DNA of 63,209 nucleotides, filler included, from Rozella allomycis CSF55 (Eukaryota): the NCBI GenBank assembly GCA_000442015.1. It is 6 parts of 6 records of this genome, joined end to end, with 100 filler letters (N's around TTAATTAATTAA, not from the genome) between each part and the next. Parts side by side here need not be neighbours in the genome. Positions count along the whole stretch, not along the records: positions 5,601 to 28,593 come from KE560852.1; 5 more parts are not named here. One strand, given 5' to 3'. A program made the position numbers and the translations under genes. Shown here one piece after another: positions 14,998-17,900 of this stretch. Every line of letters starts with the position of its first letter. The first letter of the stretch is position 1. Under the pieces are notes generated by a model. The model was not told the DNA's origin and ran no database searches. It worked only from the letters and a program-made list of their open reading frames with translations.

Positions 14998-17900
14998 ATG
15001 AAAGATATTTCTAAAACAACCTTTCTATGCCCCAAAGAGGGAGCCCCGCTGTACATATACATTATGGCCGTTCTCGACGTGTTATATATATACTACCGAC
15101 GTCAATCTCTTCTTTTGCAAAACGAGTTGTCTATAGTATCCCTAGTATTGCTGGGAGCGGTGCATATAGTTTTGTACCTGAGCATGCATTGGAGCATAAA
15201 AATGCGTGTGTTATTCGAGTACAAAAAAGTGTCTTTGATAAAGGACGCGAGGTAATTTTAGGTATGTTTGGAGAGTAGATGTGTGTTTGTTGAGCCAGTG
15301 AAGCATCATGGCAAGTGTGAGATTGTTGAATTGAGACGCGGTGTATTGAGAGGCGAGGAGGTGCTGTATATGCGGTTTCAGGAGCGTAATTATGTGTATG
15401 GGCGTGAAGGGTTTGCGAGTCTGAAGATGCCTGTTGATATGAAGTTTGAAGAGTATGTTGGGAGTGAGGGGATTGACAGGGTGGAGGATTACGAGCTGTA
15501 TGGCNTGAGGGGATTGACAGGGCGGAGGATTACGAGTTGTATGGCGAGAATGAGATTCGTGTCAAGATACCAAAGTTCTGGGAGATGTTCAAGGAGCATG
15601 CTGTTGCACCGTTTTTTGTGTTCCAGGTGTTTAGTGTTGTGTTGTGGTAAGGAGATGAAAGGAGGTTGAAAGGATGTTTGATGAGTATTGGATATACAGT
15701 TTGTTTACATTGGTGATGCTGATAGGTAAGGATGCGAAGATTTTTTGAGAAAGGGTTTGAATCGACTGTTGTGTTTCAGAGGCTGAAGATGAAGCAAGAG
15801 TTTTCTGGGATGAAGAATGAGAGTTTTAGGGTGCTGGTGAAGAGGAGGGGCAAGTGGGTTGAGAAGGAGAGTAGGGAGCTGATACCTGGGGATGTGATTA
15901 GAATTACGGGGAGGGAGGAGGAGATGAAGAGTCCGTGTGATTTGGTGTTGGTTGAGGGGAGTGTTGTTGTTAATGAGGTGATATTGACTGGAGAGTCTAC
16001 GCCAATGTTGAAGGAGAATATTTTGAATAAAAAGGGGAGATTTGATATAACAAAAGATAAAGAGAATGTTTTGTTTGGAGGGAGTGAGATTATTTTGGGA
16101 GTTGGAGAAGAAATCAAGTGTTTTGTTTTACGAACAGGTAACAACTTTGCTTAGATTTTCAACAGGTAATGACTATAATATCCCCCATTAAAAGGGTATG
16201 AAACTAGCCAGGGAAGATTGATAAGAATGATGGAATTTCATTCAGAAAATGTGAATGTGAATAGTTATGAGAGTTTTATGTTTATTTTATTCTTGTTGAT
16301 GTTTGCAATACTAGCAGCGTATCATGTGTTTGTGAAGGGGATGGAGTATGATGAGAAGAGCAAGAGCAAGTTGATATTGGAGTGTTTGATGATTATTACA
16401 GCGGTGGTGCCACCAGAGTTGCCAATGGAGTTGTCGATGGCTGTTAATAATTCATTGATAGAGCTTTCGAAAAAGTTTATTTATTGTATGGAGCCATTTA
16501 GAATTCCATTTGGAGGCAAAATTGATGTTTGTTGTTTTGATAAGACTGGAACGTTAACTGAAGACAAAATGGAGTTGACTGAGATTATTGAATATAAAAG
16601 TAACAGTCTTAGTCACTTTGAAGTTAATTCAAGTAGTTTGAAGCCTACGTTGAAACCAACTACATCTAAACAATCTACTTCTACTTCTACGTCTACTTCT
16701 AAAACATCTACTTCTCCCACTTCACCTTCACTATCACTTATAGATTGTGTTGGTTGTTGTAATAGTTTGAAAAAGTTTAATAATAAAATAATTGGAGATC
16801 CAATGGAAGTTGAATTGATTGAGAAACTAGAAATTGATATTTCTAAAAATAAAATAATAAAAAGATTTAATTTTAATAGTGAAAAGAAGAGAATGGGTGT
16901 TCTAGTGGAAATCAATAAAGAAATCTATTTCATAGTCAAAGGAGCCCCTGAGATAATAAAGAGTATGATTAGTAATAACCCCAATAAACCAAATGAACCT
17001 CTGAGTGATTCTACTTCTACTAATACTACTAATACTAATTCTACTAATACTTCATCTAATTCTACCTCTTTTGATTCTGTTTATGAAGAGTATAAAAGGT
17101 TGGCTAAACAGGGGTATAGAATAATTTCATTTGGATTCAAGAAAATATCAAAAGAAATTAAAAATGTTTCTTCATTTGATCAAGAATATTTTGAAAATAA
17201 TTTAACATTTTCTGGCTTTGCTGTTTTTGATTGTAAATTGAAAAAAGATACAAAAGATGCAATTAACAATTTAAGAAATTCAAATCATTTTATTGTTTTA
17301 ATTACTGGAGATAATATTCTAACTGCAATTCATGTAGCCAAAGAATTAAACCTCAAAGGGTCCAACTATATTAAAGAATTCAAGGGGGTTGAAAGTGGAG
17401 TAGAAGGGGTTAAAAGTGGAGATAATGAAAGTGGAGAAGGTGAAAGTGGAGATAATGAAAGTGATGGAGTTGATACTACTAAAGTTGATACTACTAACGT
17501 TGATACTACTAAAGTTGATACTACCACAGTAGAGACTACTACAGTAGACGCTACTACTTCGTTGTCTCCCCCTACTACTTCTCCATTTACCTATGCAGTG
17601 ACGGGTGATACGCTTAATAAAATGTCACCAAGTCAGTTTGATAAATTGATTGATAAAATAATTGTTTATGCCAGAGTATCCCCTGAACAAAAAGAATTTA
17701 TTATTACAAAAATGAAAGAAAAAGGTTTATTCTGTTTAATGTGTGGTGATGGAACAAACGATGTTGGCGCTTTAAAGAAATCTCACATTGGCGTTTGCTT
17801 TGTTAAACGCTTCTGAAGATGATCTACAGAAACAACAATTGGCTCAGAAATCTATTCTTGTTAAAAAGCAAATAAATCAAATTAAATCTTTTGGTCAGAA

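Follow-up and report, generated by a model that had tools for sequence, protein, structure and literature searches.

The SPF1 locus and its host gene

The window analysed here is a 63,209-nt stretch of DNA from Rozella allomycis CSF55, made of six parts joined end to end with filler between them. It is AT-rich, with about 32-38% G+C, and the scaffold contains 24 single-N joins and some 44-N gaps. On the plus strand, a P-type ATPase gene lies next to a formate/nitrite-transporter gene, and three intervening sequences of 57-58 nt occur in these two genes (Table 1).

The Pfam families 2TM_P5A-ATPase, E1-E2_ATPase, Hydrolase and Cation_ATPase were found on consecutive ORFs from 14950 to 17813. With exon 16197-17816 as the query, 3498 P-type ATPase homologues were obtained at E<=0.001, and those listed are named cation-transporting ATPase 13A1. 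The best match, a partial protein of R. allomycis CSF55 (P0001), covers 72% of the query at 83% identity; the match after it reaches 37%. The features of a P5A-type ATPase are present, namely the N-terminal hairpin, the A domain, and the P domain with DKTGTLT. These domains and the match to P0001 identify the gene as orthologous to SPF1/ATP13A1, in a Rozella allomycis-like organism. A few residues of P0001 differ from the window, and because two sequence forms occur at many sites in the DNA runs, these differences were taken as allelic. The exon upstream of the first 57-nt sequence is placed by E1-E2_ATPase positions 6-90, which fall in ORF 15726-16151, and by its agreement with P0001, and the exon downstream of it carries positions 114-181 of the same family from its residue 20 onward.

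At about 17792-17799, the window is one base longer (near 17794) than the contigs of the DNA runs X1, X4, and X6, and two substitutions are found there as well. The extra base produces a false frameshift in SPF1.

Table 1. Coordinates of the features discussed, counted along the window
Feature	Position	Strand	Description
Intron before the SPF1 upstream exon	15726-15753	+	28 nt
SPF1 upstream exon	15754-16137	+	ends in TTACGAACAG; a split Gly codon begins with the final G
Unit 1, candidate micro-intron	16138-16165	+	28 nt, GTAACAACTTTGCTTAGATTTTCAACAG, GTAAC...CAACAG
Unit 2, candidate micro-intron	16166-16194	+	29 nt, GTAATGACTATAATATCCCCCATTAAAAG, GTAATG...TTAAAAG; abuts unit 1
SPF1 downstream exon	16195-17995	+	begins (G)GG TAT GAA; carries DKTGTLT and two putative low-complexity inserts
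Assembly join	18226-18273	+	duplicated exon end, unit 1 and start of unit 2, then a single N
Second twin, SPF1	18284-18340	+	GTATTATAGAATAGATTTATTAATCTAG (28 nt) and GTAATCTATTTCAAAAATTTGTAATTTAG (29 nt)
Third twin, formate/nitrite-transporter gene next to SPF1	19406-19463	+	GTAACACATAATTGACACTCCACAACTAG (29 nt) and GTATCCATAAATAACATTCGATATAATAG (29 nt)

Intron lengths in the window

Ordinary introns in this window measure 24-31 nt, mostly 26-29 nt. A first census took every GT..AG segment of 16-120 nt whose removal fuses two open frames, each 40 codons or longer. Among segments with GTAA donors, 10, 8, 13, and 7 candidates were found at 26, 27, 28, and 29 nt, respectively, and 0-7 at any other length. 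The splice signals were derived from 55 introns of 26-29 nt with a GTA donor, flanked on both sides by 45 or more open codons. The 5' end reads GTA[A/T], and the 3' end has an A-rich stretch and [A/T]AG.

Gene models were then considered. A first model builder, in which introns could be as long as 200 nt, was discarded because it linked the entire window into four giant models. The builder used instead allowed only introns of 24-31 nt and doubles of these. From its 67 models, 28 were chosen by eye as real genes, and antisense shadows and models on non-GTA donors were dropped. The 28 models contain 90 GTA-donor introns, with 3 of 24 nt, 1 of 25 nt, 25 of 26 nt, 19 of 27 nt, 28 of 28 nt, 6 of 29 nt, 3 of 30 nt, and 5 of 31 nt; the count takes in the two units of 19406-19463 and the duplicated copy at 18234-18261. 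Thus, 78 of the 90 are 26-29 nt long and all lie within 24-31 nt, in models selected from a builder that is unable to find long introns. Introns and doubles of this kind are sufficient to give stop-free models for SPF1 (1205 aa), a PEX1-like AAA protein (771 aa, 10 introns), an SNF2 helicase (725 aa, 7 introns), a carboxyltransferase (484 aa, 8 introns), and another protein (691 aa, 7 introns).

Because the builder is blind to long introns, a separate Pfam check was made on single ORFs. One family continues across consecutive ORFs, at neighbouring profile positions, at 14 junctions, and a GT-AG intron of 24-30 nt bridges 13 of them. At none of the 14 was a longer intron required, and one junction, in a kinase near 45914, has no GT-AG solution. 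Across the 63-kb window, no convincing intron of 32-56 nt was found, and the only longer intervening sequences to be substantiated measure 57, 57, and 58 nt. An apparent gap between DnaJ and DNAJC11 turned out to be an N join with duplicated flanks together with ordinary introns of 26-28 nt.

In the kinase (45880-45925, minus strand), the protein kinase profile is split between two adjoining ORFs that differ in frame, with Pfam positions 9-78 on one and 79-143 on the other. There is no GT-AG intron between ...YLMMD and (I)CVSGGELFD; a 24-nt AT..AC segment would keep the frame, and a sequence error is the alternative. Non-standard introns or sequence errors are therefore present here.

Two adjoining GT-AG units at 16138-16194

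A sequence-only reading of this DNA had stated that 57 nt must be removed at this position to obtain the conserved protein, and translation against P0001 and the homologues bears this out. The segment contains no N. If it is left unspliced, in-frame stops follow, a TAG being the fifth codon with more after it (GNNFA-stop-IFNR-stop-stop-L-stop-YPPLK). Excision joins G|GG in phase 1, and the product across the junction is that of the annotated R. allomycis protein P0001. Among 119 further P5A-ATPase homologues, 115 span the junction. Ungapped alignment over -9 to +10 is limited to 14 of these; in the eight alignments inspected, the gaps lie at least 5 residues upstream, in a variable loop.

The upstream exon ends in ...ACAG (16134-16137) and the downstream exon starts with GGTATG. 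Between them, a division of the 57 nt at CAG|GTAATG gives 28 and 29 nt, and the exon between these two units has zero length. The same division had been proposed earlier, and the bases re-extracted from the window agree with it. Each unit has the properties of an ordinary micro-intron, with a length within 24-31 nt and GTA and AG sites in the ordinary score range. For unit 1, 7.9 bits were obtained at the 5' site (82nd percentile among the 55 ordinary introns) and 6.9 bits at the 3' site (65th); for unit 2, the values are 7.2 bits (64th) and 7.3 bits (80th). The medians of the 55 training introns are 6.8 bits (5') and 6.2 bits (3').

That part of the 57 nt is coding, as a micro-exon or in an alternative isoform, is scarcely credible. 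Nothing was found in favour of it, and the 57 nt contain stops in all three frames. In addition, excising a single unit, whether of 28 or of 29 nt, puts SPF1 out of frame, and 99 of the 115 junction-spanning homologues align without a gap from -6 to +10.

DNA support and assembly joins

At the three single-N joins examined among the 24 of this scaffold (11563-11633, 15464-15505, and 18226-18273), the flanking sequence is duplicated with a few differences, which looks like unmerged alleles. The flank duplicated at N 15505 is an artefact, as its 41 bases (15465-15505) are skipped in all three DNA runs. The copy in the join at 18226-18273 differs from the right-hand copy at 2 interior bases and keeps the CTAG|GTAATC junction.

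The 57 nt at 16138-16194 could in principle have arisen in the same way, by concatenation of two alleles or contig ends, and we regard this as very improbable. The nearest N lie at 15505 and 18273, and thus none occurs within 600 nt on either side. The two units are dissimilar, and the protein frame demands a length of exactly 57 nt. Independently assembled contigs of X1, X4, and X6 cover the site, and a contig of X6 runs from 15506 to 16596, differing at 17 letters and having a single gap letter. The earlier statement that this is not an assembly join is therefore upheld. Genomic reads with only one unit had been named as evidence against a pair, and the contigs of all three runs carry the 57 nt.

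A variant contig in X1 and X4 leaves 16142-16150, that is 9 bases of unit 1, unaligned. We suspect that this reflects a substitution cluster in a second allele, which would appear as mismatches in the long X6 contig. If it were a true 9-nt deletion, the first unit of that allele would be 19 nt long.

Around N 50093, two minus-strand ORFs (49763-50098 and 50454-50822) have near-identical lists of WD40 Pfam matches and may represent another duplicated join. The PXA, PX, and Nexin_C domains of sorting nexins usually occur in one protein. Here, PXA is encoded on the minus strand (54321-55079) and PX with Nexin_C on the plus strand (52755-54045), in ORFs that overlap near N 54010. This strand split across 52755-55079 may be due to a mis-join or an inversion.

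Two further twins

A scan for pairs of the form GT..AG|GT..AG, with both parts 22-33 nt long and open frames on both sides, returned 40 rows. Among these, 16138-16194 and 19406-19463 were convincing, and most of the others had poor donors or lay inside exons. The scan missed the twin at 18284-18340 because of the N join just upstream; it was found by reading the sequence and from the gene model. At its junction, all 80 spanning homologues align without a gap. For 19406-19463, the downstream exon carries Form_Nir_trans positions 56-126 from its residue 2 onward, and positions 2-49 match the upstream exon weakly (E 0.068).

The three twins share several properties. As had been noted earlier, the upstream exon ends in AG at 16138, 18284, and 19406; an AG exon end precedes 12 of the 55 ordinary introns. 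Both ends of all six units score inside the ordinary range (percentiles 0.11-0.96 against the 55 introns, one of which is the unit 19406-19434 itself). When the interior of each twin was shuffled 200,000 times, a central AG|GTA with halves of 24-31 nt appeared in 0.24%, 0.36%, and 0.13% of cases for the three twins; for 16138-16194 with halves of 26-29 nt, the value was 0.08%. The sequence-only reading had described the three as instances of the same two-step architecture. The build does recur in these three sequences of 57-58 nt, and the two steps of splicing are what we infer from it.

The units within a pair were considered as duplicates of each other, and this was ruled out by alignment scores at background level (0.48 for 16138-16194, and 0.59 and 0.66 for the other two; the mean best match of ordinary introns is 0.65). 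No twin unit resembles any other intron of the 63-kb window above background.

All three twins lie within 16138-19463, a region of 3.3 kb in two adjacent genes, and about 87 other introns were called across the 63 kb. This clustering could be due to chance. The transporter gene also contains a 27-nt segment (19287-19313, GTAAAT...TTCAG) that is in frame and stop-free, so that its spliced and unspliced forms would both be translatable.

Searches for relatives and transcripts

A metagenome scan with P0001 found no close relative. A second scan, with an alignment of 24 sequences, gave 79 P5-ATPase loci. The top 16 were examined, and 12 of them had a match over the junction. An intron at the position of 16138-16194 was absent in all 12, which read straight through RTGF.T.QG. 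These loci encode distantly related P5 ATPases from protists, several of which use other genetic codes, and they therefore have little bearing on rozellids. The loci L001, L002, L012, and L013 contain in-frame stops inside well-aligned P5-ATPase regions, as expected if TAA/TAG is read as an amino acid.

Among the sequencing runs listed as containing the locus, none is of RNA. An RNA run taken by its species label (X12) yielded two short contigs that are 90-95% alike to the conserved DKTGTLT region; none lies on the intron.

One reaction or two

The mature protein is the same whether the 57 nt leave in one piece or in two. How the sequence is built, that this build recurs, that DNA contigs contain it, and what the reading frame requires were all observed, and from them we infer two reactions rather than one: 16138-16194 probably consists of two micro-introns that abut at a zero-length exon and leave in separate splicing reactions, whichever goes first. 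Within each unit, a GTA 5' site and an AG 3' site stand at the usual 26-29-nt spacing, and by intron definition each would be excised separately. A pairing over 57 nt is twice the usual span, as given by a census of 63 kb that used heuristic models of our own, and two reactions are thus the simplest expectation.

The main alternative is a single intron of 57 nt, removed in one reaction from GTAAC (16138) to AAAAG (16194), with the central AG|GT left unused, either as a remnant (for instance, of two formerly separate introns after loss of the short exon between them) or as a product of chance. We consider this unlikely. It agrees with the public annotation, in which P0001 has one gap here and an identical mature protein, and no RNA data contradict it. 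However, a correctly spaced central AG|GTA is found in all three sequences of this size, at a shuffle probability of 0.001-0.004 each, and the inner sites score equal to the outer ones. The inner pairings have the usual 28-29 nt, whereas 57 nt falls outside the 24-31-nt range of the 90 introns. RNA folding does not shorten the distance either, as no fold that brings the outer sites together was found in the 57-58-mers (z of +1.5, -0.45, and +0.69 against shuffles).

The P0001 model also lends the alternative some support by removing 111 nt (16633-16743) and 84 nt (17005-17088) of SPF1 as introns. If these were real, the argument from a length ceiling would be weaker and a single-step excision of 57 nt plausible. 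However, both stretches are in frame, stop-free, and S/T/N-rich, and the 84-nt one has a GTG donor with a 5' site of -0.2 bits. Judging from these properties, we think that they are coding inserts rather than introns. In the exon that holds them, X6 shows length differences, with 27 and 1 bases left out, and with 53 bases skipped where 8 are put in.

If the two micro-introns are removed separately, two routes would be available. When unit 1 leaves first, the exon end ACAG would meet GTAATG, and an ACAG|GTAA 5' site would be recreated for the second reaction. When unit 2 leaves first, unit 1 would remain as a normal intron ending in ...CAACAG|GG. The two inner splice sites, 3' of unit 1 and 5' of unit 2, physically overlap, and the reactions are therefore probably sequential and not simultaneous. 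Half-spliced RNA would be out of frame and unspliced RNA would contain in-frame stops, so that double excision alone would encode the ATPase.

As for its origin, the twin may have formed when a second intron was inserted at the AG|GT of a pre-existing exon-intron boundary. A broader proposal is that the spliceosome has a strict upper length limit near 31 nt, that longer sequences persist only as chains of complete micro-introns with obligatory recursive splicing via zero-length exons, and that the pairs are intron gain caught in the act, through insertion at the boundary AG|GT, for example by reverse splicing. This is possible, and we put it forward tentatively, with more doubt than belief.

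Removal in two steps, if true, would be the smallest-scale recursive splicing known to proceed through a zero-length exon. It would also mean that a spliceosome tuned to introns of about 28 nt enforces a ceiling on their length. A cassette of 57 nt with four splice sites would be a simple system for studying how intron length is measured, and the twins suggest that introns are gained preferentially at exon-intron boundaries (AG|GT). In such genomes, genes will be mis-modelled by any gene finder that takes each gap to be one intron or sets a lower limit on intron length.

Comparison with known systems

The openly accessible literature searched gave no description of abutting intron pairs in any organism, or of intron lengths in Rozella; the word intron is absent from PMC5701793.

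Ratchet points are known from very long introns, many kilobases in length, which they subdivide. Recursive splicing through zero-nucleotide exons at ratchet points is described for Drosophila Ubx and about 200 other sites (Duff et al., bioRxiv 10.1101/006163). The SPF1 twin resembles a ratchet point in the juxtaposition of AG|GT inside an intervening sequence, with a zero-length exon, and here a 5' site, ACAG|GTAATG, would be regenerated after the first step. The twin differs in that it is only 57 nt in total, with a minimal intron at each step and either order workable, and in being known from DNA sequence. It thus has the juxtaposed AG|GT of a zero-nucleotide recursive site, in an intervening sequence that is not a very long intron.

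Stwintrons are the spliceosomal twin introns of fungi, in which one intron lies inside another and splits the latter's donor, branch element, or acceptor (PMC7138796, with further treatment in PMC9024468 and PMC8469720). The likeness lies in complex intervening sequences of fungal-lineage genes and in consecutive U2-type reactions, which would apply to the SPF1 twin as well. Two further shared points are that intron definition favours the smallest intron first, and that new splice sites may arise inside or beside an existing intron. Stwintrons are nested and their order is fixed, whereas the SPF1 units abut without nesting, and both GT..AG pairs are intact before splicing. Since no splice signal is interrupted, 16138-16194 is not a stwintron in the strict sense. 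The SPF1 twin appears to be a variant close to both zero-nucleotide recursive splicing and stwintrons, not described earlier in the literature searched.

Genomes with narrow classes of micro-introns include Paramecium (20-35 nt) and the chlorarachniophyte nucleomorph (18-21 nt). To our knowledge, end-to-end intron pairs have been reported for neither. What the Rozella window has in common with them is a very narrow class of intron lengths, 26-29 nt here, and short GTA...AG signals.
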